A stretch of DNA of 64,000 nt from an uncultured Verrucomicrobiae bacterium. GTDB taxonomy: Bacteria; Verrucomicrobiota; Verrucomicrobiia; Chthoniobacterales; UBA10450. The stretch's first letter is position 1. Each line of letters begins with the position of its first letter. The DNA lies in assembly GCA_963726745.1 (NCBI GenBank), contig CAVSDR010000003.1, positions 960,001 through 1,024,000 of the forward strand, written 5' to 3'. The position numbers and the translations under genes are program-made. The notes below the pieces were generated by a model, which was not told the DNA's origin, did no database searches, and saw only the letters and a program-made list of their open reading frames with translations. Positions 3,018-62,932 of the stretch are shown one piece after another.

Positions 3018-4349
3018 GTGGACCCGCACGGCTCCGGCGAGACCATCGCCGCCATCTCCACCGCGGTCGGCGAAGGCGCGATTGCACTCGTTAGGCTTTC
3101 CGGGCCGGAAGCGGTCGCGATTGCCGACCGGCTTTTCCGCGGAAAAGCGCTCCCGTCGGCCTTCAGTTCGCACACGCAGCATCTCGGCGAATTGGTGGAA
3201 GACGGGCGTGTGATCGACCAGGTGGTGCTGGTGGTCCAGCGGGCGCCGCACAGCTACACCGGCGAGGACGTGGTGGAGATCAGTTGCCACGGTGGCGTGA
3301 TCGTGACCGGGCAGGTGCTGGCAGCGTGCTTGCAGGCTGGCGCGCGCGCGGCGCGGCCGGGCGAGTTTACCGAGCGCGCCTTTTTAAACGACAAGATGGA
3401 CCTGACCCAGGCCGAGGCGGTGATCGATCTGATCCGCGCGCAGACCGATCTCGCGGCCCGCTCTGCGACCGAGCAACTGCAGGGTCAGCTCGGCCGCGCG
3501 ATCGGCGCGCTCAACCAGGAGATCGTGGACCTGCTGGCGCACCTCGAGGCGGCGATTGATTTTCCGGAGGAAAACATTGCGCCCGACGAGGGCGAAAAGT
3601 TGCGCGCGCGCCGGGAGAAAGTGCTGGCTAAAATCGACGCGCTCCTCGCGACCGAGACGCGCGGCCGCATCCTGCGCGAAGGCTTGCGCGTGGTCATCTA
3701 CGGCCCGGTGAATGCCGGCAAGTCGAGCCTGCTTAACCGCCTCCTCGGCTACGAGCGCGCGATCGTGAGCCATCTGCCAGGGACCACGCGCGACACGATC
3801 GAGGAAGTGATCAACCTGCGCGGGATTCCGCTGCGCCTGCTCGACACCGCCGGCCTGCGGGAAACAGACGACGAGCTGGAACGCGCGGGGATCGCCCGGA
3901 CCGAGGAGTCGTTAGGCCGGGCCGATCTGGTGCTGCACGTGCTCGACCGGAGCGCGCCGCGGCCGGCCAATTTTAGCCAGCGAGATGAAGCGCGCGAGAT
4001 CCTGCTCTTGAACAAGAGCGACCTGCCCGAGCACACCGATTGGGCTGGCGTGGGGGCGCTCCGCATTTCCTGCCAGACCGAGGACGGCCTCGCCGGACTC
4101 GACGAGCACATCCTCGCGCAACTCGGCGCCCGACATCTGGGTGCGGAAAGCAGCGTGGCGATCAACACCCGCCATCGCGACTGCCTGCGGCGCGCGCGCG
4201 ACCTTGCGGCGGCGGCGCCGCTGACGGAGCCGGAGCTGGCCGCGCTCGACCTGCGCGCGGCCCTTCAGGCAAGCACGGAAGTGATCGCGCTGGAAAGCGA
4301 CGACGCCGTCCTCGACTCGCTCTTCGCGCAATTCTGCATCGGCAAATGA
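3018..4349 (+). CDS. mnmE: tRNA modification GTPase MnmE
   Basis: [39 protein letters not shown], terminal FCIGK. Confidence 0.97.
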
Positions 4350-5362
4350 GCGCGCTTTACCAGGCACTCGTCCGGCCGGGACTCTTCGCGCTCGACCCGG
4401 AGCGGGCGCATCATCTCGCGCTCGGCGCGCTCGAGCGGGCCTCGGCCTTCCCGCCAGCGCTGGCGTTTCTCCGCCGCTTCCAGCCACCGCGAAAACCGGT
4501 TTCGCTTTTCGGGCTCACCTTCCCCAATCCCGTCGGTCTCGCGGCCGGCTTCGACAAGAACGGCGTCGCGTTGCCGGCATGGGAGGCGCTCGGGTTTGGC
4601 TTCGTCGAGCTCGGCACGGTGACCGCGCGCGCGCAGCCGGGGAATCCGCGCCCGCGCATTTTTCGCTACCCGGAGCACGGCGCGCTTGATCAATCGCCTC
4701 GGCTTTAACAACGACGGCGCGGATGCGATTGCGGAGCGACTGCGAAGGCTGCGCGCGCGCGGCGGCTGGCCGCTCATTCCCGATCGGGATCAACCTCGGC
4801 AAATCGAAAACGACGCCGCTGGAGAAAGCGGCGGAGGATTACCTCCATTCTTTCCGGCGGCTGCGCGAATTTGCCGACTACCTGGTGCTGAACGTGAGCT
4901 CGCCGAACACGCCCGGCCTGCGCTCGCTCCAGGAGCACGAGGCGCTGGCGAAGTTGCTCGGCGCGATGCAGCGCGAGAACGCCCGCGGGCCGCGGAAGCC
5001 GGTGCTGCTGAAAATCGCGCCCGACCTGGGCGACGACGATCTCGGGCAAATCATCGCCACGCTGCGAGGCGCACGAAATTGCCGGCATTATCGCGACCAA
5101 CACCACGCTCGATCACCGCGCGCTCGCGGGCGCGCAGGACGAGACCGGCGGCCTGAGCGGAGCGCCGTTGCGGGCGCGCGCGACTGAAGTGGTCGGCAAA
5201 ATAGCCAGCCAGACGCAGCTGCCGGTGATCGGCGTGGGCGGGATCGCGGACGCGGCGAGCGCGCGGGAGAAACTCGCGGCGGGCGCGAAATTGATTCAGC
5301 TCTACACGGGCTACATCTATCGCGGCCCGGGGTTGCTCCGCGAAATTTGCGCGGCGCTTTAG
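4346..5362 (+). CDS. pyrD: Quinone-dependent dihydroorotate dehydrogenase (three apparent +1 frameshifts near 4686, 4780, 5061)
   Basis: [69 protein letters not shown]. Confidence 0.93.
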
Positions 5363-5423
5363 CCTCTGGCGGCAGGCAATGTTGTCCCTTTAGTTTTCTG
5401 AGCGCTTTCGCTAAGATCGACAA

Positions 5424-6311
5424 ATGGCCGTCGCGCCTCCGCTCCCCATCTCCCAGATCAACGACCATTCCAGCGAAAGCTCCTGCGGCCCGGTGCAGGT
5501 CGAGCAACTGCGCAAAGTGCCGCTCTTCGACGGCCTCACGGCGGGCGCGACCGAACGTCTCTGCGCGCTCCTGACGCTGCGCGAATTCAAGGCGCCCACC
5601 CGCCTCTTCAACGCGGGCGACTCCGGCGACGCGATGTATTTGATCGAGCGCGGCAAGGTGCAGATCACCGTGACCGATGCCGATGGCCACGAGGTCACGC
5701 TCTCGGAATTGCACGAGGGCGAGTTCTTCGGCGAGATGGCTTTGATCGATGGCGAGGAGCGCTCCGCGGGCGCGACCGTGCTGGAGGATTCGCGCCTGGC
5801 GATGCTCACGCGAAAGGATTTTCTCGCCTTCATCACGAGCGATTCGCAGGTCACGCTGGCGATGCTCGCGGCCATGGCGCGCCGGCTCCGGCGCACGGAC
5901 AATCTCCTGCGGCATCGCGTTTCGCGGAACCCGAACGTCGAGGCCGCGGCCCACACGACTTTAGCCGACCGGATGGCGGACTCGATCGCGAGCTTTGGCG
6001 GAAGCTGGAAGTTTATCACCGGCTCGGTGATTTTCCTCGGCGGCTGGATCGTGGTGAACCTCGTCTTCAACCGGACGTTCGATCCCTACCCGTTCGCTTT
6101 TCTGCTTTTCATCCTAAACATCCTGCAAGCTTTCCAGGCGCCGATCATCATGATGTCGCAAAACCGGCAGACGGAAAAAGACCGTCTGCGCGCCGACCTC
6201 GACTACGAGGTCAACTTGAAGAACGAACTGCTGCTCACGGAAATCCGCACCGTCCTCGCCGAGCAGGAACGCCGACGGCGCGAAGAGCGCGCGGGATTTA
6301 GTCGGGATTAA
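5424..6311 (+). CDS. Cyclic nucleotide-binding domain plus DUF1003 membrane domain protein
   Basis: cNMP motif GEFFGEMALIDGEERSA; DUF1003 motifs FGGSW, FDPYPF, QAPIIMMSQNRQ. Confidence 0.88.
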   Translation: MAVAPPLPISQINDHSSESSCGPVQVEQLRKVPLFDGLTAGATERLCALLTLREFKAPTRLFNAGDSGDAMYLIERGKVQITVTDADGHEVTLSELHEGEFFGEMALIDGEERSAGATVLEDSRLAMLTRKDFLAFITSDSQVTLAMLAAMARRLRRTDNLLRHRVSRNPNVEAAAHTTLADRMADSIASFGGSWKFITGSVIFLGGWIVVNLVFNRTFDPYPFAFLLFILNILQAFQAPIIMMSQNRQTEKDRLRADLDYEVNLKNELLLTEIRTVLAEQERRRREERAGFSRD

Positions 6312-6361
6312 CGGCGGCGGCGCGGGGGAAAATCCCGGCAGAGGCCCGGCCTCGCGCGTGG

Positions 6362-9300
6362 CTAGCGCATCTGGTAAATTTCGACCGAGGAGATGCCCGT
6401 GGTGTTGTTCTTCCCGCGAACGACGGCGCTGTAGCTGCCGGGATCGAGGCTGATCCGGAGCGCGGCTTCCTTGTCGTCCTTTGGCTGCAAGCCGGTGGCT
6501 TCGATGTCGCTGCGCGAGCCGACGCCGGCACCGCTCTGGGTTTTCCAGTTGTCGTTCGAGAAGACCTTCACCGAACCGCGGTAGATATCGAGCGTGGGAT
6601 CGGCCATGGCGTTGCTGATGCCGGCCGCCTTCAGGCTCGGCCCGAGAGCGCGCACGATGACTTCCTGCGCGGTGCCCGGTTCGTTGTTCGGCGCGGAGAC
6701 GATAAAGCCGGCAATGAGCGCGCCGTTATCGCCTTCGTTGACCTTGCCGCGGGTGGAGATGTTAACCAACCGGCTGACGGTGGTCGCACCGAGATCGTAG
6801 ACCTCGACCAGGCCGACGCCGTTGGTGGTGCCGCGCAAGATGGCGGTGTGCGGGCCGGCATTGAGCGTGGTCGACGAGGGCGGCCTCGCGCGTGTCCTCC
6901 GGCTTGAGGCCGTTGGCCGCGAGCGTCTGCTGGTCGCCGGCGGAATTGGTCGTGTAGTTGTCGTTATACCCGATCTGGTTGCCGTTCGAATCCATCAGCT
7001 GGACCGACGGATCCTGGATGGCATTGACCACGCCGCGCTGGGTGAGCGACGGCCCGAGGCCACGGATGATCACCTGCTTGCTGTCGCCTTGGACGATGAA
7101 CCCGGCAATCATGACGCCTTCCGCCTGCTCCACCGGGCCGCGGGTGGAGACGTTTCGCAGCTTCGTGCGCAGATCGAAATTATTGACCGTGACCGTAGCG
7201 CTCGAAGTGCCGCCTAATTCCGCGCCGCTGCTCGGATTCGAGAGGGTGACTTTGAACTGTTTCGAAGGCGTGCCCGCCGGTTGCGCCGTGAGCGGAACGG
7301 TGATGGTCCGCGAGGTTTCACCGGCGGCAAAGGTGAGCCGTCCAGAAGTCGCAGTGTAATCGGTGCCGGCCTGCGCCGTCAGGTCCGAGGTGGCGTAGTC
7401 GACGGTGAAGATGCCGTTCGGATTGCCCAGGCGCGAAAGCGTGACCGTGAGGGTGGCGCTGCCGCTGGAATTGTTCACCGCGTAAGTCGGCGAGCTGAAC
7501 TGGAAGGTGGTGGCGTCGTTATCCGCGATCGTAACGGTGGCCCGGCCGCTGCCGATGCGCGGCGCGCTTCCGTTCGTTGCGCCAAGAGGATTCGACAGGA
7601 CCACGTAGAAGAACTGGCTGCCTTCCTTGGTCGTGTTGTCGACAATCGGGACCGTGATCGTCTGCCGGGTGACGCCGGCGTTGAAGGTCAGGCGGCCGCT
7701 GGTGCGGGTGTATTTTCTGTCCGCCGCGGCGGTGCCGTCGGTGGTCGCGTAGTCGACCGTGACCACTTCGGCGGGATCGCCCACGCGCAGGGCTTCGACG
7801 GTCAAGGTGACCGAGCCAGAGCCTTCATCGATGCTGTAATCCGTGGGGTTGAAGCGGAAGGTCGTGGCATCGTTGTCGAGGATGTTGACCGTGGCCGTGC
7901 TCTGGCCGCCGACGAATCCGGTGCCGGTGGGCGAAGTGAGCGTGACCGTGAAAGTGAGCGTGGGATCGGCGGTGGCGTCGTCGATGATCGGGATCTGGAT
8001 GACCTTCGAGACCTCGCCAACGCCGAAGGTGACGCTCCCGGTAGTGGCCTGGTAATTCACGCCGGCGACGGCGGTGCCGTCGCTGGTGGCGTAGTTTACC
8101 GTGGCGGAAACGCCGAGGCCGCCCGAGCGGGTGACCGTGAGATTGGCGAAGCCGGCGCCTTCATCGACATCGAACGACTTCGCGGAGAAGCCGATCGTGG
8201 CCGAAGGCGAATCGTCATCCGCGATCTCGACCGTGGCGGTGGCAGCGGTGCCCACGGCGACGCCCGGGCCGGGATTGGAGAGCGCAACGAAGAAGTTCTC
8301 GGTGCTCTCGATCAGGTTGTCGTTCAGGATTTGGACGGTGATCGGCTTGCTGGTTTCGCCGGGGCCGAAGGTGAGCGTGCCCGAGGTGCCGACATAGTCA
8401 GCACCTTCCAAAGCGGTGCCGCTGTAGGTGCGATATTGCACGGTGAGCGTGTTGTTCGGATTCCCCTGCCGGCTGGCGACGACCATGACCGTGACCGTTC
8501 CTCCGAGCTCTGAAACGGTGTAATTGGCAGGGCTGAACTGGACGATGCTCTGCACGTCGTCATCGATGATCGTGACAATCGCGCTGCCCGGGGTGCCGAT
8601 GATTGATCCCGGGCTGGGGTCATTCAAGGTCACCCGGAAGGTCTCCGGATCTTCACTGATGGTGTCGTTATTGATCGGGACGAGAATCGTCTTGCTGGTC
8701 TCACCGGGCGCGAAGGTGAGCGTGCCGGAAACCGGCGAGAAATCGAAGCCGGCGTAGGCGCTAATCGGTGTGGCGGTAAAGTTGATCGAGGAAGCGCGGG
8801 AAGCGTCGCCGTTCGGGATCAGGTTGACCGTGAGGACGGCATTCCCGGCGTTTTCGACCACGCTGTAAGTCGCGCTGCTGAACTGGATGACGTTGCCGAG
8901 ATCGTCGTCCGTGATCGTGACCTTGGTGGTCGAGATGCTGCCTAATTGCGCCACGTCGCTGCTCAGGAGCGTGAGGTGAAAGGTGACGTCGCCCTGGATG
9001 AGCGTGTTATCCGGGATCGGGATGATGATCGTTTTCACGTGCTCGTTATCCACCACGACAGTGCGCGGCGGAGTCCCGATCTGCGCGAGCAACGGAGCGA
9101 AACGAATCTCGCCGGAAGTGGGCGTGAAATTGACGCCCGCCTGGGCGGTGTCGCCCGCGCGCAGTTCGGTGGTGTAGCGCGCGATCGTGCCATTCACATC
9201 GAAAGCGCCGAAGCGGACCACGGTAATGGCAATGGCTGCCTGGTCGCCTTCGCGGAAACGATGCGCGGTGGTGAGGAACTGGACCGTGTTCGGGCCGCTA

Positions 9301-11462
9301 TTGTCGAAGATGGTCACGCGCGCGGAGCTCTGCCGGCCGATGGAAGTGAACGGGCCAGGATTCGTTAGGCCGACGGTGAAAGTCTTCACGCCCTGGGCCG
9401 CGGGATTGTTGAAGATCGGGATGGTGACGCTCTGGACGCTTACCCCTGCAGGGAAGGTCACCGTGGTCGACGACGGATCCTGGTAGTCATCCGGATTGAC
9501 TGCGGTGTCGCCGGTCGCGCCGAGGGTAAGATTGACGGTTAAAACCTGGTTCGGATCGCCGCCGCGGACCGCGCGCACGCGCACCTGGACGGCGCCCTCG
9601 ATTTCGACCGCGCCATATTCGGCCGCGTCGAACTCCACCGTGTTCAAGCCGTCGTCATCCTGGATCGTGACCGTGGCCGACGAAGGCGAGCCGAGGAAGG
9701 CGTTGATCGGGTCGCTCAGGACGACGAAGAAATTCTGCGGCGGCTCGATCACGTTGTCGTTCAAGATCGGCACCACGATCGTAGCCACGGCAGAACCGGG
9801 CGCGAAATTGATCGTGCCGCTGGTCGGGACGAAGCGGGAATTGGAGGCCGAGCCGGCGACGGTGGTGAACTTAACGCTGGCGGCGGAGTTCGTGTTGCCG
9901 GTGCGATTAAGGAGGACGGTGAGCGTGACCGAACCGGAGCTCTCGGAGACAGCATAATTCGTGTTGCTGAACTGCACCGTGCCGGCGGCATCGTTGTCGA
10001 GAATGCTGAGCGTCGCGGCGGAATTCGCGCCCAGGGTGGCATTCGTTGGGTTCGCCAGGACCAGGCCGATGGTCTCGGTGTTTTCCGGGATGGTGTCGTC
10101 GATGATCGGAATGGAGAAGGTCTTGATCGTCTCGCCGGGGCCAAAAGTGAGGCGGCTGTTGGATTGCGCGCTCACCGGGGTGAAGTCCGAGCCGGGCGTG
10201 GCCGAACCGGTCTCGGTGAAATACTGCACGCTCACGGTGTCGCTGTTATTCCCGGCGCGATTTAACCGCACGGTCACGAGAGCATTGCCGTCCTGCTCGT
10301 TGACCGAGAAATCAGTCCCGGCAAATTCCACCGTGTTGGCGTTTTCGTTGTCGATGATCCGCACCTCGGCGGTGGCGGTCCCGCCGGGAACGGAAACGCC
10401 GGAGTTCGGGCTCGCAGTCAGCGAGACGTAAAAGGACTCGGTGCCCTCGACCTGACTATCGTCAAAGATCGGGATGTTGACCGTGGCAAAGGTTTGCCCT
10501 TGGGCGAAATCGACGTTTAACCCGGTGACGGAGGCGTAGTCGACATCCGGCGTGGCCGTGCCGCCCACCGTGGACACCTTGACCCGCGCCGCGCTGTTGG
10601 TATTCCCGGTGCGGAGCAGCGTGATGGTGGCATTGCCGGCATCTTCCGCGACCGAGTAGCTGCCGGCGCTGAAGTTCACCGTGCTGGTTTCGTTATCCAC
10701 GATCGTGACCGTGGCCGTGGCCCGGTCGAAACTATAGCGCGCGCCGGGCCCGGAAAGATTGACCGCAAAGGTCTCGTTCCCCTCGACCAGGGAGTCGTCG
10801 TAGATCGGGACGGTGATCGTCTGCGCCGTCGGACTACCGGCCGCGAAGACCAAGGTGCCGGCTGTGTTCTGGTAGTCGACGCCAGGATCCGGCAAATCGC
10901 CCCCAGTCGCTGAGCCGGGCTGAGTGGTGAAATTGACGACATCCTCCTGGGTGATATCTCCCGAACGCGTGACCGTGAGTGTGACTGAGCCGCCATTCTC
11001 CTGCACCGCGTAGCTATCGGGATTGAAGGTGATCACGGTTCCGCTGCCATCATTATCCTGGATCATGATCGTGGCGGTGCTCTTGGTCCCGTCGATCGTA
11101 GCGCCGGAGGGATTGCTGATCGTGAGCGTGAATTGCTCGGTGCTCTCCGCCACGAGGTCGTCGATGATCGGCACGGTGATCAGCTTGGCGGTGTCGTTAG
11201 GCCCGAAGGTCAGGGTGCCGGCGGTGGCGCGGTAATCGGAGCCGGCCACGGCCGAACCGTCGCTCGTCCCGTAGTTCACCGTCACGGTGTTGGCGTTGGA
11301 CCGCGCGAGCCGGACGATCACGTTCACGCTCCCGGCGTTCTCCACCACCGTGTAGGAGGTCTTGTCGAGCGAGAGGACATTTTGCCCCTGGGCGGAACTC
11401 CCCGCGGAGAGCGCGAAGAAAGCGATCAAGGCGACGAAAAAAGCGGAAAGACGAGGATTCAT
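6362..11462 (-). CDS. Large secreted protein with about 12 Calx-beta domains and two C-terminal NISTR-type domains (apparent frameshift near 6870)
   Basis: Signal peptide MNPRLSAFFVALIAFFALSAGSSAQG; repeats of F-x4-Y-x-V-x-E...GTLTF-x-PGET-x-K-x-I-x-VPI-x-DD...A-x-V-x-I-x-D(N/D)D; C-terminal LRNVSTRG-x-V and LVNISTRG-x-V. Confidence 0.88.
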
Positions 11463-11596
11463 AAGCGAACGGGACGAAGCGCCGAGAAGCGACGCGGCGC
11501 GGAGTGTGTCAGATGAGTTGGGCGAATGCAAAATGAAACTTTTTCCGCCCGGGGCGTGAACGAAAAAAGAGCGCAAATCGGCTGCCGGCGAAGGGG

Positions 11597-12151
11597 TTAA
11601 TTCCCGCCCTGCGCCGTTTGCACCACCGTTTTCAGGTCGCTGATGCTCCCGTCGGTAAAGATGATCAGGTTGCCGCTGCCGTGGACGTCGCCGGTCTCGA
11701 TGAACCAAGGCTGGCGGGCCCATTCGTGCGGCGTGCCTGGCTTGTCGTCGAAGGGGGTGGCCACGTAATCGATCCGCGCGGTCGCGGGCGTGGAGTAATC
11801 GGGGTTGTGCAGCAGATTTTGGATCGTGGGGCAGATCCAGGTTTTGCGCACCGGACCGAAAGGCGCGAGCGCATCGATCCAGGCTTGAGCGGTTACCTCC
11901 GGCGGGCTCGAAGAAGAGCCGACAGGGATTTGCGGCCAGACGCCGTTCTGCTGCAGGTAAAGCTCGGCTGCGACCGCGAGATTCTTCAGGTTATTCGAGC
12001 ATTCCACCCGCTGGGCCCGGGCACGTAGCTTGGAAATAAGCGGCACGCTCAGGACTGCGAGCACGCCGATAATGACGATCGCGACCGCGAGCTCGAGCAG
12101 CGAAAAAGCCCGCGCGCGCGCTGGTTTCACCGGCCGGAGAGAAAGCGGCAA
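11597..12151 (-). CDS. Prepilin-type N-terminal cleavage/methylation protein with H-X9-DG C-terminal motif
   Basis: RAFSLLELAVAIVIIGVLA N-terminus; C-x-NNLK; C-terminal HGSGNLIIFTDG. Confidence 0.85.
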   Translation of the reverse strand: MPLSLRPVKPARARAFSLLELAVAIVIIGVLAVLSVPLISKLRARAQRVECSNNLKNLAVAAELYLQQNGVWPQIPVGSSSSPPEVTAQAWIDALAPFGPVRKTWICPTIQNLLHNPDYSTPATARIDYVATPFDDKPGTPHEWARQPWFIETGDVHGSGNLIIFTDGSISDLKTVVQTAQGGN

Positions 12152-12157
12152 GCGCTC

Positions 12158-12784
12158 CTACCCGCCCGTCGTCGGCACGACAGCCGGCGCGGCGGTGACC
12201 GAGCTGGATTGCTTCACCCCGGAGACGACCAAAGAGAGAATGCTGGAAATGACCGGATCGCCATTCGCGGCCACCTGGCCCTGAGAAATCGAGAGGTTGG
12301 CGTCGCCGCGAATGACGGTGGCGCTGCTGGTCGCCGTGCCCCCGGAAACAGTGCCGCCCACGGTGGAAATCTTGGCATTCACCGGGCCGGCCGCGGTCGC
12401 GGTGATTGGGGTGGTCACCACCGTCTGGGTGCCATCGGCATTGGTCAGCAACGAGCTGAGATTGTAGGTGTAAGAGGCGGAGAGGATGCCCTTGAGCGAA
12501 GCCTTCTGCGGATTGGCAAAGGCCTGCGCGGTGCCGGTGAAGACGCGCCCGCGAGAGAACATAACGAAGGCGCCGGTGGCGTTACCCGAGCTGGGAACGC
12601 CTAACGAGAAGATACCAATGGAGTTGCTCGAGGCTGGGTTGGTCGGGTCAAAAACCCCCTGGAGCACGCCCGCGTAGGTGCCGACGATGTTGCTGCCCTG
12701 CGGATACGGCGGGCCGCCTTTGAGTGCCCACGACTGCGAGGTGCCGAGGAGCAGGCACATGAGGGAAGCGAGAACGATCCGCAT
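12158..12784 (-). CDS. Hypothetical secreted beta-rich protein
   Basis: Signal peptide MRIVLASLMCLLLGTSQSWA; S/T/G-rich; co-oriented with neighbours, GC3-rich codons. Confidence 0.7.
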   Translation of the reverse strand: MRIVLASLMCLLLGTSQSWALKGGPPYPQGSNIVGTYAGVLQGVFDPTNPASSNSIGIFSLGVPSSGNATGAFVMFSRGRVFTGTAQAFANPQKASLKGILSASYTYNLSSLLTNADGTQTVVTTPITATAAGPVNAKISTVGGTVSGGTATSSATVIRGDANLSISQGQVAANGDPVISSILSLVVSGVKQSSSVTAAPAVVPTTGG

Positions 12785-12793
12785 GCGCTGGAG

Positions 12794-13804: not shown

Positions 13805-13878
13805 CGCCCGACGACCCTACGGAAAGCGCGCGGGATTCCTAGAATTAAGTCGCGCCGCGCTGAGCAGAACTCGAAAAA

Positions 13879-51605: not shown

Positions 51606-51617
51606 GCGCGCCCTCGC

Positions 51618-51863
51618 CTAACGAATCCCCGGCGTCGGCCCGCTCTGCCAGCGCGCGTAGGTGTCGTTGTAAAATTGAAACTGCCGGCCGCCCAGCCGGC
51701 GCACGGTGCTCCAGCCGTTGCGCGTGGCAAAGTCCTGCAGCTCGGCCGCGGTCAGTTGTTGCAGGATCAGGAGCTCGCTCGGGTGCGTGATGAAACACTC
51801 CGGCCGCCCGGCGAGGGCGCTGGCTATTTTTGTTTCGATCGCGGATAGCTCGTCAGAGATCAT
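51618..51863 (-). CDS. Small hypothetical protein (81 aa)
   Basis: Strong SD GAGGAGG just before ATG 51863; GC3-rich codons. Confidence 0.65.
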   Translation of the reverse strand: MISDELSAIETKIASALAGRPECFITHPSELLILQQLTAAELQDFATRNGWSTVRRLGGRQFQFYNDTYARWQSGPTPGIR

Positions 51864-52029
51864 TGACCTCCTCATTCGTCCGGCGCGCCGGCGGCTCGTT
51901 CTTTTCGATCTCGCCGCCGGGAAAAGTGGGCGGCGGTTTCGGTGGCCGATTCAATTTCTCTCCGAGCGCATCGTGCGCTTTCGCCGAGGGCGACGGCCCG
52001 TGGGCCTCTGGTTTTTCGGGGTTGCTCAT
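51853..52029 (-). CDS. Small Pro/charge-rich hypothetical protein (58 aa)
   Basis: Manual translation MSNPEKPEAHGPSPSAKAHDALGEKLNRPPKPPPTFPGGEIEKNEPPARRTNEEVNDL; overlaps the next start; below the ORF-track cutoff. Confidence 0.45.
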   Translation of the reverse strand: MSNPEKPEAHGPSPSAKAHDALGEKLNRPPKPPPTFPGGEIEKNEPPARRTNEEVNDL

Positions 52030-52133
52030 GTGGCGTTGCCTTCCACTGAGGAAACGCAGCCCGCCCCGCCCGCGGCCCTGTATCCCGCGGGCCGGTTCGC
52101 CTTCCTTCGCTGGTTAGGCTAAACTCCGCCCGC

Positions 52134-53348: not shown

Positions 53349-53359
53349 TTCCTTTGTTT

Positions 53360-54167
53360 ATGCGCGAGCTTCTTCTCTGTCCGCCGGATCACTACAGCAT
53401 CCAATACGAGATCAATCCCTGGATGAGCCGCGCCCAGGAGGCGGACAAGGACCTCGTGATGCAGCAGTGGAAAAATCTTCACCGCGAACTCAGCGCGCTC
53501 GACACCAAGGTCCATGTGATCACAGCCGGACGAGAAGCTGCCGGACATGGTCTTCACCGCGAATGCCGGGCTCGCGGTCGGCCGCAAATTTATCCCGAGT
53601 AATTTCCGCCACGAGGAACGCTCGGGTGAAGCGCCGCTCTTCGCCGCCTGGATGGAGGAGCGCGGCTACGAAATCATCTGGCTGCCCAAGGATCTCTACT
53701 TCGAGGGCGAAGGCGACGCGCTCTTCGGCAACGACGCCCTTTTCTGCGGCTACAAATTCCGCACCGACATCAACTCCCATCGCGCGATCGCCGACTTGTT
53801 AGGCTGCCTCGTCATCTCGGTGGAGCTGGTCGACCCGCGCTTCTATCACATCGACACCTGCTTTTGCCCGCTGGGCGATGGCGGCGCGATGTGGTTCCCG
53901 CAGGCCTTCGACGAATACGGCCAGCGCGCCATCCGCGATCGGCTCACGAACTTGATCGATGTCTCCGAGGAGGAAGCGACCGTCTTCTGCTGCAACGCCG
54001 TCGTCCTCGAGCGCGACATCGTCCTCCCGCAAGGCGCGCCCAAATTAGTCGACAAGCTCACCGAGCGCGGCTTCACCTGTCACCCGCTGCCGATGTCGGA
54101 ATTCCTCAAGGCCGGGGGCGCCTGCAAGTGTTTGACCATGCACATGCCGCAGCGGCAGTCGGTCTGA
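53360..54167 (+). CDS. Amidinotransferase/DDAH-fold enzyme, ArgZ N-terminal arginine dihydrolase-like (apparent +1 frameshift near 53528)
   Basis: YEINPWM, PDMVFTANAG, FEGEGD, FYHIDTCFCPL, EFLKAGGACKC. Confidence 0.87.
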
Positions 54168-55938
54168 TCACCGTTCCCGCTTCCGCTTCGCCAAAAGCGC
54201 CGCCTCGATCTTCCCCAGCGGCAGGCAATTCATCACGTCGGCTTTCGTGAGCCAGCCTTTGCGCGCCACGCCCACGCCGAACCATAACTCCTGCAGCCGC
54301 TCGACCGCGTGCGCGTCGGGATTGATCACGCACTTCACCCCTTTCTCCTTCGCCAGCGGCCACCAACGCCAGTCGAGATCGAGACGCTTGGGCGCGGCGT
54401 TGATCTCGATCCACGTGCCCGTTTCCGCGGCCGCTTCCAGCACCGCCGGGATGTCGACCGCGTAGGGCTCGCGCCGCAGGAGCAGCCGGCCGGTCGGGTG
54501 CGCCAGGAACGTCACGTAAGGGTTTTGCATGCGCGCGGATGATCCGCTCCGTCATCTCCGCTTCCGGCAGGGTGAAAGCCGAGTGCACCGAGGCGACCAC
54601 GTAATCGAGCTCCGCGAGGAACTCGTCCGGGAAATCGAGCGAGCCATCGCGCAGGATGTCGCACTCCACCCCGGCAAAAATCCGGAAATCGCCATCTCGC
54701 TCGCTATTTAGCCGGCGAATTGTCGCCAGCTGCACGCGCAGGCGCGCCTCGTCCAGGCCGCGCGCCTGCACCGAGCTGCGGCTGTGATCCGCGATCCCGA
54801 GATATTGCAGCCCCAGCTCCTCCGCCGCGGCCGCCATTTCCTCGAGCGAATTGCGGCCATCACTCGCGGTGGTGTGGCAGTGAAACGTCCCGCGCAGATT
54901 TTCTTTCTCGAGCAACCGCGGGAGCGCGTGCTTCTCCGCGGCCTCGAACTCGCCGCAATTCTCGCGCAGCTCCGGCGGCACATAGTCCAGGCCTAACGAG
55001 CGGTAAAGCTCCGCCTCCTCGCGCACTTCTGGAATCGGCTCGGAGATTTTCGCCTTCCGCTTCGCCGCCGGGTCGACCGGCACCGGGCTGAGGCGATACT
55101 CGTTCAAGGTCCACCCGCGCTGGAGCGCGCGGTTTCGCATCACGATGTTGTGCTCCTTGCTCCCGGTAAAATAATTGAGCGCGAAGGGATACTCCGCGGG
55201 CGTGACCACGCGCAGGTCGCACTGGATCCCGGAGCGCAGGCGCACGCTCGTCTTCGTCGCCCCCGCGACGATGACCGACTCCACCAGCGGATGCCGGACG
55301 AACGCTTCCGAGATCGCCGCCGGCTCTTTCGTCGCCACGATGAAATCAAGATCGCGCACGATCTCCTTCCGGCGGCGGTAGCTCCCGGCGACCGAGACCT
55401 GGAGCGCGGCCTCGAGCGCGCACAGATCGTCGCGCAAAGTTTCCGCCTCGCCCGCGATCGCGCCGAGCTGGAAAGAGCCGACATGCTTCACGCGATCGGC
55501 GATCGCCTGCGCGAGCTTCTCCTGCGTGGTCTTGCCGAAGCCAGGCAACTCCGCGACGCGGCCGGAGTCGCACGCTTCCTTGAGCTGCGCGATCGAGCTG
55601 ACCGCGAGCTTTTCGTAGAGCGCCTTGATCTTCTTCGCGCCCAAACCCGGGAGGGTGAAAAGCTCGAGAATGTCCGCGGGAAATTCCGCGCGCAGCTGTT
55701 CGAAGATCTCCGAGCGCCCGCTTTCCGCGAGCTCGCGCACCACGCCGGCGATGCCTTTGCCGATCCCCGGAATTTTAGCCAGCGTCTCGGGATTTTGCAG
55801 GTCAGCCACGGTCCCGCCCCAGGTCTCGATCGAGCGCGCGGCGTTGGTGTAGGCGCGGATCTTGAACGGGTTCTCCGCCTTCAATTCCAGCAGCGTCCCG
55901 ATTTTTTCCAGAGTGTCGGCTATCCCCGCCTTGTCCAT
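54168..55938 (-). CDS. polX: DNA polymerase X with PHP exonuclease domain (apparent +1 frameshift near 54533)
   Basis: IPGIGKG, GSYRRRKE, RDLD, YFTGSKEHN, FHCHT, DHS, HPTGR, DAH. Confidence 0.93.
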
Positions 55939-55991
55939 GGGCTCATCGATAATCCGGGAATCGCTGCGCGTCGATTGTGCTACCGTCCCGG

Positions 55992-57056
55992 ATGAAATTC
56001 CGCCTGCTGGCCGCGGTGCTTTTCATGGCCGCGCTTTCACCCGCGCCCGCGGTCATCCTCTTCCGCACAGCCGATCCGGAAGCGAACACGACCGCGCCGG
56101 GCGGTGATCTTGCCGGCAGCGGCTGGCAATACGAAGGCCTCTGGGGAGGCTTTCTCGGCACGCCGATCGCGCCGCAATATTTCATCTCCGCAAAACATAT
56201 CGGCTTGCAGGGCGACCTCGTGTTTCAAGGTGCGACCTACCACGTCGTTGCGGCCTTTCCCGATCCCGCAAGCGACCTGCAAATCCTGAAAGTGGCGGAG
56301 ATTTTTCCGTCGTTCGCGCCGCTTTATAGCCGGCAGGATGAAGTCGGCCAACGCTTGGCCGAGTTCGGCCGCGGGACGCAGCGCGGCCCGGAGATTTTTC
56401 TTGGCGGGACGCTGCGCGGCTGGGCTTGGGGCGCGGGCGATGGCCGGATGCGCTGGGGCGAAAATCTCGTGAGCGCGATCTTCAGCGAGAACGCGGAGAA
56501 CGATTACCTCGTCTCGGCTTTCGACCAGAATGGGCTGCCTAACGAGTGCCACCTTTCGGCGGGCGACTCCGGAGGCGCGGCTTTCATCAACGATGCCGGC
56601 ATTTGGAAACTGGCCGGGATCAATTACGCGGTCGATGGCCCGCTCTACACCGACAGCGCGGGGAACGGCGCCTTCACCGCGGCGCTCTTCGATGCCCGCG
56701 GTTTCTTTGCCGAGGAGAATGGCAACTATGTCGAAATTACCGGTCCCACCGCGGTGCCGACATCGTTTTATCCCACGCGCATTTCACGCCGCCTGCCTTG
56801 GATCGCGAGCGTGCTCGCCGAGGGCCTCCTCACGCGGGAGGCGGATCGCATCGCCTTCACCTACACCCGGCTGCTGCTTCCGCCGACGGACTTGAGCTAC
56901 GCGCTCGAGCAATCCAACGATCTCCGCAATTGGTCGCCCGCCGCGCTCACCGAGGAAGTCCTCTGGAGCAACGCCTCGGTCGAGCGCGTGCGCGCCAGCC
57001 GCCCGCTGGCCGATGCCGGGCCGCTCTTCTTCCGGCTGCGCCTCAGCGCGCCTTAG
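55992..57056 (+). CDS. Secreted trypsin-like serine protease with C-terminal beta domain
   Basis: Signal peptide; ISAKH, SDLQI, GDSGG catalytic triad motifs. Confidence 0.8.
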   Translation: MKFRLLAAVLFMAALSPAPAVILFRTADPEANTTAPGGDLAGSGWQYEGLWGGFLGTPIAPQYFISAKHIGLQGDLVFQGATYHVVAAFPDPASDLQILKVAEIFPSFAPLYSRQDEVGQRLAEFGRGTQRGPEIFLGGTLRGWAWGAGDGRMRWGENLVSAIFSENAENDYLVSAFDQNGLPNECHLSAGDSGGAAFINDAGIWKLAGINYAVDGPLYTDSAGNGAFTAALFDARGFFAEENGNYVEITGPTAVPTSFYPTRISRRLPWIASVLAEGLLTREADRIAFTYTRLLLPPTDLSYALEQSNDLRNWSPAALTEEVLWSNASVERVRASRPLADAGPLFFRLRLSAP

Positions 57057-57073
57057 CAGTCGTTAGGCGCGGA

Positions 57074-57673
57074 TCACATCCGCCCGCGGCGCTTGTAGAA
57101 GTCCACCCGCGCGAGGATCGAGTCGACGTAATTGCGCGTCCCGGGGAAGTCGATGCTTTGGCGGAAATCCTCCGGCGCCAGAACCACGGAATCGTCGCCG
57201 CCGGCCCAGCGGATCGCGCGGCTGGCGCCGGCGTTGTATTCCGCGAGCGCGAAAGGCAACGGATCGCTCTGGTGCTTCCAATGCTGGAGCGCGCGCGCCA
57301 GATACCAGCTCCCAGCCTGCAGGTTCACTCGTGGATCGAAGAGCTCCTCCGCGCGAAAATCCTCCACCTTCGTCTCCCGGGCCCATTCCTGCGCGGCGCG
57401 CTCGGTCACCTGCATGAGCCCGCGCTCGCCCGCGCTACCGAACTTCCGCGGATCGAACCGGCTCTCGCGCCAGACGACCGCCTTCACCACCATCGGGTCG
57501 AGATGATGCTGCGCCGAGACTGCGGTGATGAGCGCATCCTGCCCCTGGAAGCGCGCCGGGCTGAGCCACTCGTGCAGCGTGTAGACCGGGTCGCCCGAGC
57601 GGAGGGCAAACATGGCCACCGCCGCGCCGGCCGCGAGCAGGCAACAGATCAGGAGTTTGAGAAAAAAACGCAT
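57074..57673 (-). CDS. Lytic transglycosylase (SLT domain)
   Basis: WRESRF, GLMQV, GSWYL, EYNAG, TRNYV; N-terminal anchor. Confidence 0.9.
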   Translation of the reverse strand: MRFFLKLLICCLLAAGAAVAMFALRSGDPVYTLHEWLSPARFQGQDALITAVSAQHHLDPMVVKAVVWRESRFDPRKFGSAGERGLMQVTERAAQEWARETKVEDFRAEELFDPRVNLQAGSWYLARALQHWKHQSDPLPFALAEYNAGASRAIRWAGGDDSVVLAPEDFRQSIDFPGTRNYVDSILARVDFYKRRGRM

Positions 57674-57704
57674 CGCGGAATCAATTCGTGGCGGCCCGGG
57701 CGTT

Positions 57705-57746
57705 GAACATCGAACATCGCACCGCGAACGTCGAATGCTGAACCCG
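57705..57746 (+). repeat. Degenerate heptamer tandem repeat spanning the priA start
   Basis: GAACATC GAACATC GCACCGC GAACGTC GAATGCT GAACCCG. Confidence 0.6.
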
Positions 57747-59970
57747 CCCCAATTCGCCCGCGTTATTCTTGATCGCGCGATTCACCGCGAGCTCGACTAC
57801 GCCATCCCGGAAAATTTAGCCGACCGGCTGAACATCGGCTGGCGCGTGCGGGTGCCTTTTCGCGAGCGCTCCGCGCTCGGGACGGTCGTTGGCTTGCTCG
57901 AGAAATCCGACGCGCAAGGGCTGCGGCCGATCGAGGCGATCGTGGGCGACGGCCCGGCGTTGAACGCCAAGCTGCTTGAGCTCGCGCGCTGGATGGCGGC
58001 TTACTATTGCTGCTCGATCGAGACGGTCATGCGCAGCCTCCTGCCGCAGGTCATCCGGCGCGCGGAGGTGAGCTTCAAGAAGCAGCTCTTCGTCGAGCGC
58101 GGTCGCGCGCCGACCGCGGAGGAACTCGAGAAACTCCAGCGCCGCGCCCCGCGACAGGCGGAACTTCTGGAGGCGGTCGGCAAATTAGCCAGCGCGATCG
58201 CCGCCGCCGATCTCCTCCGCCAAACCTCGCTCGATAACCAAACTCTGCGCGCGCTCGAGAAGCGCGGCTTCGTGCAATTGCGCGAGACCGCGGTCCGCCG
58301 CGACCCGCATGCGGACGAGCAATTCATCGCCACGAGCAATCTCGAGTTGAACCCCGAGCAGGCAATCGCGCTGGCCGCGGTCGAGCAGTCGTTAGGCGAT
58401 CCCGCGAATGCAAAGCCGCTCCTCCTGCACGGCGTCACCGGCAGCGGCAAGACGGAGATTTACCTGCAAGCCATCCGTTGGACGCTCGACCGCGGGAAGA
58501 CCGCGATCGTGCTCGTGCCGGAGATTTCGCTCACGCCGCAGACGGTCGAGCGCTTCAAGAGCCGCTTCGCGGAAGCGCCAGACACCGTCGCGGTTTTACA
58601 CAGCAAGCTCTCGGAAGGTGAGCGCCACGACGAATGGCACAAGATCCAGATGCGGCGCGGCGCGCATCGTCATTGGCGCGCGCAGCGCGATCTTCGCGCC
58701 GCTGGAAAACCTCGGGCTCATCGTGGTGGATGAAGAACACGAGACAACCTACAAGCAGGAAGAAGCGCCGCGCTACCAGGCGCGCGACGTCGCCGTGGTT
58801 CGCGCGAAACTCGAGGGCTGCGTGGTCTTGTTAGGCAGCGCCACGCCTTCGCTCGAAAGTTATTACAACGCCACCCGCGGGAAGTATCAGCTGCTCAACC
58901 TGACCCTGCGGGTGGACGACAACCAGATGCCGATGATCCGGATCGTCGATCTGCGGCTGGAATCGCGAAAGGCCAAGGGGCTCACGATCATCGGCGAAAA
59001 ATTATACAGCGCGATCACCGCGCGGCTGGAGAAGCGCGAGCAGACGATCCTGTTCCTGAATCGCCGCGGCTTCTCGACTTCGCTTCTTTGCCGCGCCTGC
59101 GGCGAAGCGCGGGAATGTCCGAACTGCAGCGTCGCGCTCACCTTCCACCGCACGGCCGCGCGCTTGAGCTGCCACCTCTGCGGCCACACCGCGACGGTGC
59201 CGAAGAAATGCCCGGCCTGTCATGAGGACGCGCTGATCTATTCCGGCTTCGGGACCGAGAAAGTCGAGGCGCACGTGCAGCAGATTTTTCCGAAAGCGGT
59301 GGTCAAGCGGATGGATGCCGACTCGATGACGCGCAAAGACGCCTTTCGCGACACCCTGCGCGCCTTTCGCGCGGGCAAGATCGATGTCCTCGTGGGCACG
59401 CAGATGATCGCGAAAGGGCTGCATTTTCCCAACGTCACGCTCGTCGGAATCATCAACGCCGATCTCGCGCTCCACTTGCCCGATTTCCGCGCGGGCGAGC
59501 GGACCTTCCAATTGCTCACGCAGGTCGCCGGGCGGGCCGGGCGCGGCGAGACGCCGGGCGAAGTTTTCGTGCAAACGTTCACGCCGTTTTCGCCCTCGAT
59601 TCAGTTTGCGCGGCACCATGATTTCGCTGGCTATTTCGAGCAGGAACTCGAGTTCCGGGAGCGCTGCGACTTTCCGCCGTTCAAGCACGCGGTCCTGGTG
59701 ACGATCCGCTCCGAGCACGAGGCGCGCGGGAAATTCTCCGCGGAAACGATCGCGCGCCGCCTGCGCGAGGCGCTCCCGGCGGAGTTCATCCTCGGCGAGC
59801 CGACGCCGGCGCCGCTGGAGAAATTGCAAAGCCAATACCGCTTCCACATCCTCCTGCGCGGCGACGCGATCGTGCGCCTGAGCCGGCTCTTGCGCGAGAC
59901 ACTCGACAAGCTGCCGCTGCCGGAAGACGTGATCGCCTCGGTCGACGTGGACCCGTATCAACTGCTCTGA
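57735..59970 (+). CDS. priA: Primosomal protein N' (apparent +1 frameshift near 58650)
   Basis: GVTGSGKTE, VPEISLTPQ, DEEH, SATPS, four CxxC pairs, GTQMIAKG, QVAGRAGR, DVDP. Confidence 0.96.
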
Positions 59971-61325
59971 GGCGGGGTGAGCGTCTGCGACTCCGCTACG
60001 ACTTCGCTCGGGACGGCGAGGTGGACGGTTTCGCCTTCCTTCGCGGCCGCGACCTCGAGCTGGCCGCCTTGTTCCCGCACGCGCTCGCGGGCCCGCTCGA
60101 CCATCGCGTCGACCTTTTCGTCGTGATGATCGGGATCGTGATGAAACAAGAAAAGCCGCCTTGCCTTGGCGCGCAGGGCGAGCTGCACGGTGTCGTCGGC
60201 GCAGGTGTGGCCCCAGCCGCGGCGCGCCGGGTATTCGATCGCGTCGTATTGCGAATCGGCGATCACGACCTCGGCGTCGCGCAGGAAATCGATCACCTTT
60301 TCGTCCTGGATGCGGGCGTATTCCAGGCCATGCGCGGAGGTCTCGTGGTCGGCTTTTTGCCGCTCCAGTTCGCAGCGCTCGTAGGCTTCGTGATCCGGCA
60401 GGTAAACCACGTCGCCGGCAGGAGTCGTTAGGCGATAGCCCAGGCAAATCCCGGGGTGATTGGCAAACATCGTCCGCACCTGGACCGCGCCCATGTCGAA
60501 CTGCATGTCGTTTAATTCCTCGAAGGTCAGGTGCGTCGCCATCTGGTGCAGGCCCACGGGAAAGAAAGCGCTCTGCATTTGCTCGAAGAGCGCCCCGCGC
60601 AGGCCGTGGACCGCGCCTTCGTAACCGAGGATGCGGATGTTTACCTTGGGATGGTAGGCCGGGACGAAGAACGGGAAGCCCTGGATGTGATCCCAATGCG
60701 TGTGAGTCACGAGCATGATCACCTCCAGTCCATCCGGCCCGATCTCCCGCATGAGCGCCTGGCCCAGCCGGCGAATTCCCGAGCCGGCATCGAGGATGAT
60801 GATCTGCCCGCCGACGCGCAGCTCCACGCAGGAGGTGTTGCCGCCATAGCCGGAAGTCTCGCGACCCGGTGTGGGAATGGAGCCGCGCACGCCCCAGAAG
60901 CGGAGCAAGGTCGGGCCCGCGGCCGTTGGCCTAACGACTGGTTCCGCGACCGCGGTCTGGCCGTTGTGGCCCGCGGCCTCGAGCATGCGCAGGAGTTCCG
61001 CGGGCACGATCGGCTTGAGCAAGTAATCATCCGTGCCCGCGGCGAAGGCGGTCTCGCGATCATTCGCAAAACGGCTCCCGCTGGTGAGCACCACGCGGGT
61101 GTGTGCGAGCGTTTCCTGCTCGCGAATGTGCCGGCAAACCTGGAAGCCATTCCGCCGCGGCGTGCGCAGGTCGCAGACGACCGCATCGGGCCGGTGCTGG
61201 TTGACCAACTCGAGCCCAGCCTGGCCGTTTTCCGCCTCGAAAATGAGCCACTCGCCCCCTGCGAGACACTCGCCAATGAGCGTGCGCGTGAGCGCGTCGC
61301 TATCGATCAGCACGAGCGTCTTCAT
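59958..61325 (-). CDS. Receiver domain fused to an MBL-fold metallohydrolase
   Basis: N-terminal REC; FWGVRGSIP, GGNTSC, THTHWDHIQG, WGH, FHHDP. Confidence 0.88.
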   Translation of the reverse strand: MKTLVLIDSDALTRTLIGECLAGGEWLIFEAENGQAGLELVNQHRPDAVVCDLRTPRRNGFQVCRHIREQETLAHTRVVLTSGSRFANDRETAFAAGTDDYLLKPIVPAELLRMLEAAGHNGQTAVAEPVVRPTAAGPTLLRFWGVRGSIPTPGRETSGYGGNTSCVELRVGGQIIILDAGSGIRRLGQALMREIGPDGLEVIMLVTHTHWDHIQGFPFFVPAYHPKVNIRILGYEGAVHGLRGALFEQMQSAFFPVGLHQMATHLTFEELNDMQFDMGAVQVRTMFANHPGICLGYRLTTPAGDVVYLPDHEAYERCELERQKADHETSAHGLEYARIQDEKVIDFLRDAEVVIADSQYDAIEYPARRGWGHTCADDTVQLALRAKARRLFLFHHDPDHHDEKVDAMVERARERVREQGGQLEVAAAKEGETVHLAVPSEVVAESQTLTPPQSS

Positions 61326-62423
61326 AGATTAGCCGACACTTTCTCGGCCTGGGGAATCCGCAGGGTGAAGCAATTGCCCACGGGCTCCCGCGCTTCGTAA
61401 AGAATTTCCCCGCCCGCGCGCTCCACCGCCGCGCGGCAAAATTGCAGACGCAAAAGCGAGGCATCGGAGCCCTCGGAGGACGCCTTCGAAAGCAGGCCGT
61501 CGCAGAGATCGGGCGGGAGCGGCGGCCCGTCGTCGCACAACTTCAAGGCCACGCTCTGTTCCTCCGCGCGCAGCTCGAAGCTGACCACGCCACCGGCCTT
61601 GGTGTTCGTTAGGCAAATTTCCAGGACGCTGCAAACGGCGCGGCGAAGGTGGTCGCCGCTCATGGCCACGCGCGTGTCCGGCGGGGTCTGATCGGAGACC
61701 GCCAGCCGCGCCGGCTTCTCCCACGCGGCCGCGGTTGCGCTTGCGGCGCGCACGATTTCCGCGAGCCCGCAGGCCGGCGGGGAGTCCGCGCTTTGCCCGT
61801 AGAGCGTTTCCAGCTCCGAGCGGAAGACGGTGAGGATGCGATGAATCAGCGCCTGTTGATCGGCCGCGGCGCGGGCGGCCAGGCTGAGCAGCTGGCGAGT
61901 GCGCGGCGGGTGGTTGTTCTCCAATTCGAGGAGGCGCAGCGAGGTGATCAAGTTCCCGAGCGCGGCGGTCATCTGCTCGGCGATCCAGCTCAAGAGCACT
62001 TCTTTTTTGCGCGTCTCGCTGTTTAAACGCTGGAGCGCGATCACGGTCTCGCGCGCGGTCTGGAGCATCTGCCGTTTGGTCTCGAAGGCTTCGCCTTGCC
62101 GTTCGAGCAGGAGCACGGCGGCGCCGCCGACCCGGAGCGCGCTCGCTTCCAGGGTAACCTCGCGGCCGTCGGGCGCGGTCTCGATCCACGGGCCGGATTG
62201 CACCCGCAGCTCGCTGTCTGTTTGCCAGCATTCTCGGGCGTCGATCAGGAAATTTTCGAGAAACGGCGAGGCCTGCGCGACCGGCAGCTCGCCCGTCGTT
62301 TTGCAGTTGCGGCCAGAGCGCGCGGAGCCAAGCGGGCGGGTCGCCCTGCAGCCGGAGCGCGCCATCCTCGGCCTGGTGAAACACCGCCAGGCCGAGGGCG
62401 GTGAGGAGATCGTGCGCCGACAT
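61322..62423 (-). CDS. Degenerate histidine-kinase-like protein (apparent +1 frameshift near 62293)
   Basis: N-terminal SPFLENFLIDA...SGPW domain, coiled coil, HATPase-like DDGP; no H-box His; N and G2 boxes degenerate. Confidence 0.65.
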
Positions 62424-62932
62424 CAGCGTTCGTTAGGCAGCGTGATCATCCGGCGGCTGAGCTCGGCGAAAATTTCCTCCACCGCCGCGCCTTCCTTCGC
62501 GCTGGTGCGAAAATAGGTCCAGCCCTTCGTGTCCAGCTGCGCGGTGTGGGCGTCGTCGATCTCCCATTGCGCGGCGAGGTCGGCCTTGTTCAAGGCGAGC
62601 AGAAACGGCACCGGGCCGACGACCTCCGCGACACGTCCCTGGAGCTCGATCGCCTGGTCGAGTGTGACCGCGCGGGTGCCATCGGCGACTAAAAGATAGC
62701 CGCTCGTCCCGCGCAGATAGGAAGTCTGCAGGCGCTGGTAATCGTCGTCGCCCGCGAGATCCCAGATCATGAGCAGGACTTCGGTCCCGCCGGCGTCGAC
62801 CGTTTTCTTGTCGATCTTCACGCCCACGGTGGTGAGATATTTTTCCGAGAAAAGGCTGTGCACGAACTTGGCCACCAGGCTGGTTTTGCCGACGCCGGAG
62901 GTGCCAAGGAGGCAGACTTTTTTCTGGATCAT
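62423..62932 (-). CDS. Small Ras/Rab-like GTPase
   Basis: G1 GTSGVGKT, G2 TTVG, G3 WDLAG, G4 NKAD, G5 TSAK. Confidence 0.92.
   Translation of the reverse strand: MIQKKVCLLGTSGVGKTSLVAKFVHSLFSEKYLTTVGVKIDKKTVDAGGTEVLLMIWDLAGDDDYQRLQTSYLRGTSGYLLVADGTRAVTLDQAIELQGRVAEVVGPVPFLLALNKADLAAQWEIDDAHTAQLDTKGWTYFRTSAKEGAAVEEIFAELSRRMITLPNER

Follow-up and report, generated by a model that had tools for sequence, protein, structure and literature searches.

A family-specific dispersed word in Chthoniobacterales genomes with the anatomy of a candidate DNA uptake tag

What keeps one short word at 41 places within 64,000 nucleotides of the genome of an uncultured Verrucomicrobiae bacterium? The stretch analyzed here, referred to at its full length as the window, covers positions 960001-1024000 of contig C3 of genome G000 (3.41 Mb in 7 contigs), a member of the family UBA10450 of the order Chthoniobacterales. 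The element in question, word A, is the 9-mer TCGTTAGGC; its 8-mer is TCGTTAGG, with the reverse complement CCTAACGA. An initial annotation of the window had proposed an uptake-sequence-like or protein-binding word. We find that word A is real, family-specific, and actively kept, and that it is one of at least three such words. Its genomic anatomy fits an uptake-like tag better than a chromosome-organizing site, and we assign a probability of roughly 55% to the reading that word A is an uptake tag spread by biased transformation. A literature search, with most subscription journals and supplements outside its reach, found no paper on word A or on uptake sequences of Verrucomicrobia.

All 41 positions that the initial annotation gave for the 8-mer are exact (20 TCGTTAGG and 21 CCTAACGA), and 37 of them reach the 9-mer. 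The enrichment that it claimed over chance agrees with dinucleotide shuffles (mean 0.43 and maximum 4 copies versus 41), but the GC content behind its estimate is 64.7%, not 67%. It placed nearly all copies in coding sequence; by the gene calls used here, 32 of the 41 lie inside genes, 5 run across a gene end, and 4 lie outside, one of which (54992) sits in a DNA polymerase X-type open reading frame (ORF; 54106-55938). The four TAG stops that it ascribed to the word (genes ending at 21221, 40451, 41813, and 51618) were borne out, and a fifth, at 34909, ends a frameshifted piece of carB. G000 as a whole holds 1,514 8-mers and 1,312 9-mers (631 forward, 681 reverse), found on all 7 contigs, and TCGTTAGGC is its commonest 9-mer after the GCGCGCGCG pair, 82-fold above an order-2 model. 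A mixture model on all TAG anchors of the genome gives approximately 2,180 word A sites with the profile W-S-S-a-C-T-C-G-T-T-A-G-G-C. Outside this profile the flanks are unrelated between copies, and because no flanking sequence is held in common, word A is a word and not a repeat element. Rfam gave no match in the window or in integron attC arrays.

Word A is confined to one family. Across 160 genomes of the family of G000 it ranges 300-fold, from 13 to 4,336 copies, with at least 1,000 copies in 35 genomes, at least 100 in 138, and more than 19 in 159. Sixteen genomes from other families of the same order hold 1 to 19 copies, and 298 genomes of the phylum from outside the family hold at most 18; low counts are in part attC sites. 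Two "Candidatus Udaeobacter" genomes hold 146 and 163 copies. Six genomes are flagged as unpublished (G001, G008, G042, G046, G164, and G192), of which G001 and G164 belong to the 35 with at least 1,000 copies; no conclusion rests on them. Three DNA sequencing runs of one study gave short, mixed contigs only.

Our own gene calls for G000 (3,020 genes, 86% coding) place 972 copies of the 9-mer inside genes, 152 across gene ends, and 188 between genes, and the genic copies use four reading frames (450, 230, 217, and 75 copies). Synonymous shuffling leaves 12.7 genic copies when applied genome-wide and 22.1 when confined to each gene, and a dicodon model, trained with word A included, predicts 209, compared to 973 observed. 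The enrichment first seen in the window thus persists under codon-aware nulls. At the protein level, SLG and PNE are the most enriched tripeptides in G000 after PTP/TPT repeats, and 450 of the 764 SLG tripeptides use exactly TCG TTA GGC.

Single mismatches at the six core positions of word A occur at or under the level of the shuffles; therefore, there is no halo of decayed copies. We compared G000 proteins with sampled stretches of 17 relatives and kept 949 of 1,914 tblastn matches (at least 55% identity, nonoverlapping), which yielded 303 site-by-genome comparisons that are mutually nonindependent. The orthologous positions were identical in 48 comparisons, had one mismatch in 9, and had four or more in 174, compared to 11%, 23%, and 23% of controls, respectively. 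Gaps near the sites showed no indel excess (12 of 303, versus 110 of 4,580 controls), and amino acid identity was 61% in word A codons versus 77% in the flanks. Word A arises in register, by substitution, and alters amino acids; it is not an inserted element. Relatives rich in word A share 18 of 58 sites. Certain sites are old and retained even in genomes with few copies, and others recur in separate word A-rich lineages. Density falls to 0.29 per kb in the tenth of genes with the lowest GC content at third codon positions, which is a proxy only for recent acquisition, versus 0.46 to 0.64 per kb, and to 0.31 per kb, about half, in genes at 85% identity or more. Word A deserts comprise polysaccharide clusters and other low-GC stretches, and gaps of 12 to 35 kb without a perfect copy occur. 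That the word stems from biased codons or peptides, from a repeat element, or from an artifact of assembly has next to no probability. Although 450 copies encode the common tripeptide SLG and the assembly carries several frameshifts, the codon-aware nulls, the unrelated flanks, the lack of an indel excess and of Rfam matches, and the presence of the word in relatives, in 160 independent assemblies, all speak against such an origin, including the technical artifact that the initial annotation had allowed for.

The initial annotation was right about the occurrence of word A and partly supported in its interpretation, but missed both its identity with an integron core, described below, and an equally abundant word in the same window. 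This word B has the consensus RAAWTAGCCRRCRMNWTS, a loose 16-bp pseudo-palindrome, with approximately 2,600 sites in G000 by the mixture model, of which 2,172 score at least 13 bits; 119 of these share their TAG with a word A site. Genes contain 608 copies of the strict form WWTAGCCRGCR, versus 29 after shuffling, and the orthologue comparison shows that word B is also written in register. It is nearly private to G000, with 814 strict copies there. G015 has 186, and none of the other 91 of 92 genomes searched exceeds 88 (the count of G046). In G072, a 184-kb sample contained a dispersed CAAGATCGACAW, leading to the candidate word C, AAGATCGACAW, which has at least 500 copies in 22 of 73 family genomes picked with weight on those poor in word A. 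Word C peaks at 4,514 copies in G065, alongside 1,803 of word A; G000 has 17 and seven outgroups have at most 13. It is strand balanced and reads as common codons in one frame, and its 57 sites in G045 are too few to decide on spacing. No clear private word appeared in samples of 52 to 220 kb from other genomes poor in word A, namely G002, G005, G018, G059, G062, G067, G077, G097, and G140, from which degenerate words like B could escape. The top words of these samples were tandem or local repeats, and an apparent dialect in G096 was an attC array. Tandem runs of heptamers and clusters of short repeats, for example GAAGTAG runs and ACACAGATGA units, occur locally in G002 and G062 (L025, L014, L071, L080, and L082) and are not dispersed.

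Chi and the FtsK-orienting polar sequences (KOPS) are, like word A, short nonpalindromic chromosome signals, but they are strand polar. We assigned strands by local GC skew in 50-kb intervals with clear skew on the 7 contigs. Copies of word A on the G-rich and the other strand numbered 493 and 476 (p 0.61) and those of word B 802 and 786, compared to 173 and 51 for the polar control GGGNAGGG, which we take to be KOPS-like. The lack of strand bias reported for the window accordingly extends to a lack of replichore skew. Chi is approximately 6-fold enriched in Escherichia coli (PMC1939737), whereas word A stands 40- to 80-fold above Markov and shuffle nulls. A dif-like match at C3:106347 gave no clear site.

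Spacing separates the two words. With sites redrawn within 20-kb blocks as the null, we counted 136 A-A pairs at 15 to 300 bp (288 +/- 14 expected), 151 B-B pairs (244 +/- 17), and 634 A-B pairs (526 +/- 21). The ratios of 0.47 for A and 0.61 for B lie outside the 0.81 to 1.78 covered by 60 control 7-mers. For A-A pairs the ratio is approximately 0.25 below 100 bp, a four- to fivefold depletion, and reaches 1 at approximately 400 bp. Depletion holds for A-A pairs in same, +-, and -+ orientation, and a polar Chi-like reading, which concerns same-orientation pairs alone, was rejected. Word A avoids word A and word B avoids word B, yet A-B pairs are not avoided, which points to two independent readers; the slight A-B excess probably reflects shared permissive regions. 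We infer that on double-stranded DNA of a few hundred bases one copy makes another redundant, in either orientation, and that word A does not substitute for word B.

Even short-range spacing would also be expected of sites for a nucleoid or chromosome-organizing protein, such as matS, parS, SlmA- or Noc-binding sites (SBS/NBS), or the architectural role proposed for the highly iterated palindrome HIP1, if selected for even coverage. Some A sites are kept across species at 75 to 80% amino acid identity, genomes poor in word A included, and the pseudo-palindrome of word B would suit a dimeric protein. We nonetheless consider such a role unlikely. The density of word A is alike on all contigs and across the GC-skew switch on C2 of this unclosed genome, with no confinement to, or exclusion from, any chromosome domain on the 7 contigs, and in a Fourier test, a method other than that of PMC5861425, the spacing of word A on C3 and C6 was not periodic anywhere in the range of 15 to 150 kb (p 0.16 to 0.89). 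Word A-rich relatives have only the above 18 of 58 A sites in common with G000, copy numbers within the family range from 13 to 4,336, and the thousands of B sites are all but limited to G000. Even spacing and depletion in low-GC islands would likewise suit a mark of self for defense, whereby a nuclease or sensor spares DNA bearing the word every kilobase or so, and none of 12 viral contigs picked for two copies 400 to 430 bp apart is dense in the word (2 to 4 copies in 5 to 20 kb). These contigs, however, are not tied to the family of G000 as host. Gaps of 12 to 35 kb speak against such a mark, and a new private word like B would give no protection until thousands of sites existed; we regard a defense mark as very unlikely.

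Word A is identical to the crossover end CTCG-TTAGGC that attC and attI-like sites in the family have. G000 has 15 attC-like sites, all ending CTCGTTAG(R)(Y): 14 at C6:736000-745300, mid-way in a 1-Mb contig and accompanied by an attI-like first site, and one at C4:150943. The variants tolerated in word A, TTGTTAGGC and TCGTTAGCC, presumably fit integron cores as well. The same end is shared by attI-like first sites beside intI in ten family genomes, by attC arrays of G096 and of the outgroup G028, and by single attC sites of two Acidobacteria genomes with only 19 to 22 copies of word A each. Among the best 80 of 164 records with this attC end, 74 are labelled Verrucomicrobiota, Chthoniobacterales, Spartobacteria, or "Ca. 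Udaeobacter." In G096, a long array comprises approximately 20 attC sites in 20 kb (L206, C3:350001-370000), and IntI was not found in that genome.

These identities raise the alternative that word A is a half-site of the integron integrase, with IntI or a related recombinase having written it by abortive recombination or favoring incoming DNA with it. Word C and the attC left box (bottom strand) moreover share CAAGATC, and genomes offer many attG sites where IntI can insert cassettes (10.1101/2022.09.11.507474). We find this alternative doubtful. G000 encodes XerC and XerD only and lacks IntI. Searches in 21 word A-rich genomes left 6 with no IntI found, and 8 of 10 outgroups without the dispersed word have it; as a writer, IntI was rejected since its presence does not track word A. 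The attI/attC core (G/TTRRRY) differs from dispersed word A, which lacks the inverse core and hairpin: an inverse core lies 40 to 140 bp upstream of 57 of the 1,312 copies, versus 56 in the downstream control. Dispersed copies prefer GC at the last two places, unlike attC sites (n = 210: AT 63, GC 57, AC 43, GT 34). All 7 copies of TCGTTAGAT in G000 lie in attC sites, versus 1,312 of TCGTTAGGC, only 5 of which are true attC ends. Word B has no att counterpart.

Among known systems, the DNA uptake sequences (DUS) of Neisseriaceae, with eight dialects and the receptor ComP, are also nonpalindromic 9- to 12-mers with one to six thousand copies on both strands and in genes. They likewise supply a stop codon in one frame, originate in register with many mismatches to orthologues, and form clade-specific words (PMC3630211, PMC2397512). 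Their divergence from orthologues is all-or-none, as for word A (PMC2397512), and tripeptide enrichment is comparable (PMC2817400). DUS differ in sequence and phylum, and approximately 35% lie in or across genes (table in PMC2817400), versus approximately 85% of word A. The uptake signal sequences (USS) of Pasteurellaceae, with PpdA/ComN as predicted receptor, also have a 9-bp core with weaker flanks, approximately 1,300 to 1,500 copies, tripeptide enrichment, depletion in foreign genes and in those under strong constraint, and close-pair saturation (PMC2817400, PMC7811141, PMC12616744); two USS less than 100 bp apart give no added uptake (PMC7811141). The AT-rich downstream tracts of USS are not seen at word A, and 23% of USS in Haemophilus influenzae lie within 100 bp of another (PMC7811141), whereas close pairs of word A are depleted. 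In every genomic test run, except terminator pairing, word A appears to behave as a DUS or USS would, without our claiming membership in either class.

HIP1 of cyanobacteria (GCGATCGC) resembles word A in being hyperabundant in genes, in several frames and without strand bias, and it is reported to raise transformation. Word A shares neither its palindrome with a methylase site, TCGTTAGGC being different from its reverse complement GCCTAACGA, nor its periodicity at 18 to 94 kb, which was described in 22 of 50 genomes (PMC5861425). A HIP1-like drive acting after uptake, in which the word, perhaps in a modified form, shields incoming DNA or favors its recombination and uptake itself is not sequence specific, strikes us as unlikely. 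The independence of A and B is what two multiplicative steps would give, and A and B might serve different steps; HIP1 raises transformation via homology- and methylation-dependent routes (10.1101/2024.09.10.611283), the ComEA of G000 is split as described below, and the window encodes an orphan N6/N4 DNA methyltransferase (21293-22042). Word A, however, is nonpalindromic and holds no palindrome of 4 to 6 bp, and a polar Chi-like step predicts redundancy in the same orientation only, whereas all orientations are depleted.

On the side of the uptake reading, G000 carries competence-related genes: comEC, dprA, a comM-like gene, three secretins, PilB, PilC, PilM, two PilT-family ATPases, and many pilins. 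The family ComEA is a fusion of approximately 300 residues between a secreted nuclease (SNase) and HhH. Strong matches to its HhH part (E 1e-12 or better) were found in all 20 other genomes with at least 1,000 copies of word A and in 23 of 49 with fewer; Fisher's p of 1e-4, with G000 counted and three positives having short open frames, is overstated because kin are not independent. Two three-gene cassettes resembling pilV/pilW/pilX (L090:8383-10936 and L091:9578-12133, on C3 and C6 of G000), one beside dprA and ssb, end in a pilin of 481 to 492 residues with a DUF7305 domain, which we take to resemble Thermus ComZ and for which no PDB sequence match was obtained. These cassettes are patchy and multicopy in the family. 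As the two readers, the tip pilins were rejected: with that query they were not found in 16 of 20 other word A-rich genomes, and G062, with 13 copies of word A, has a 71% orthologue.

Several observations weigh against the uptake reading. ComEC occurs in 78 of 80 genomes and PilM in 76 of 80, outgroups and word-free genomes included; being near-universal, they are no evidence for it and were dropped as markers of word A. The PilT and prepilin-like genes that the initial annotation considered compatible with competence are present in the window but lend it no weight, as PilT, pilM, and comEC are near-universal in the order. The ComEA association is drawn from 70 hand-picked related genomes, and those rich in word A fall in six genera. 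In G000 itself ComEA is split: the nuclease half (C4:17230-17874) stops before HhH and lies away from its usual upstream neighbor (C4:94409-95329), and a 34-residue HhH remnant lies on another contig (C2:230178-230279), yet word A shows no decay. G058, 100% complete and with 852 copies, has no match to the G000 ComEA. The uptake-like anatomy that the initial annotation suspected is upheld by short-range self-avoidance, by sites that turn over between species, and by the lack of any long-range period or restriction to a domain, but no receptor for it was identified in G000: no pilin matches ComP above threshold, one has a subthreshold Pfam ComP match in the helix, and none of 19 pilins examined is strongly basic. 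B-B pairs are depleted in same and +- orientation, less clearly in -+ under 100 bp (26 versus 21). The inverted terminator pairs reported for DUS in all dialect genomes (PMC3630211) are absent, with one +- pair within 20 bp among 1,305 neighboring word A pairs. Known DUS dialects are single-base variants around a common core, a relation that does not hold among A, B, and C; A and B have only TAG.C in common. Two DUS dialects do coexist in Simonsiella muelleri (PMC3630211, PMC2397512), but A and B, which also share a genome, are no single-base dialects of each other, and their placement is independent. Finally, the uptake model leaves the attI/attC identity of word A unexplained; the att core may have become the target of a reader, att sites may have adopted the tag as DUS sit in terminators, or the match may in part be chance.

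Table 1. Word sites and pilus-related genes in the window (window coordinates)
Feature	Position	Strand	Remark
Word A, dispersed	3088..62437	both	41 TCGTTAGG, 37 TCGTTAGGC
Word A, example	21215..21223	+	TAG is stop of gene 20643-21221
Word A as TAG stop	41807..41815	+	DoxX gene 41355-41813
Word A as TAG stop	40449..40457	-	FecR-domain gene 40451-41290
Word A as TAG stop	51616..51624	-	ORF 51618-51863
Word B, dispersed	706..61343	both	40 profile sites of at least 13 bits; 17 match strict WWTAGCCRGCR
Word B, example	21227..21245	+	27 bits; immediately follows the A site at 21215
PilT/PilU-family pilus retraction ATPase	15970..17250	+	TIGR01420 above cut-off; context only
Prepilin-like protein	11597..12130	-	N-methyl motif, DUF1559-like; context only

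Word sites and pilus-related genes of the window are collected in Table 1. The orphan methyltransferase gene lies on the + strand directly downstream of adjacent A and B sites, and a gene at 6762-11462 (-) for a 1,566-residue protein with 12 Calx-beta domains holds two A sites and one B site. The N-terminal carB frame (35499-37766, -) contains an in-frame insert of approximately 230 residues with a Y1 transposase (IS200/RAYT-like) Pfam match, inside the oligomerization domain; the alignments of most relatives break over approximately 760 bp there, and those of G023 and G016 run straight through. carB, lon, and priA (33835-37766, 47965-50266, and 57735-59970) and a secretin gene elsewhere in G000 (C6:319701-322374) each fall into two or three frames, probably through assembly indels. 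A Ras-family small GTPase (62423-62932, -; Pfam Ras, E 1e-33) lies between a histidine-kinase-like gene and an OmpA-domain gene.

As an uptake tag, word A would act as a mark of self that biases which outside DNA is taken up and recombined, in the manner of DUS and USS. On short fragments the word would be bound by a protein of the type IV pilus/ComEA/ComEC pathway, located at the surface or in the periplasm, and a second copy on one fragment would add little; word-bearing fragments would replace resident alleles more often, and new copies would therefore sweep. Word B may likewise be a tag, with a separate reader or a separate step, acquired for the most part on the G000 lineage, and word C may play the part of B in other genera. 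More tentatively, and with a low probability, one can picture a multi-tag uptake code, in which a family-wide tag that is also the integron crossover core makes cells preferentially import both cassettes and DNA of kin, alongside a tag that is unrelated to it, specific to a lineage (B in G000, C in other genera), and read separately. If such a code exists, sequence-specific uptake would extend to a third bacterial family, and two independent tags would for the first time be known from one genome. "Ca. Udaeobacter," a member of the Chthoniobacterales, is among the most abundant soil bacteria, and if soil Chthoniobacterales were a third case, tags of this type would prove to be no peculiarity of mucosal pathogens. 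The 300-fold range of copies in 160 genomes, with extra words coming and going, would provide a natural series for questions of drive and tag origin, and the words would offer a handle for transforming or binning members of a mostly uncultured group.

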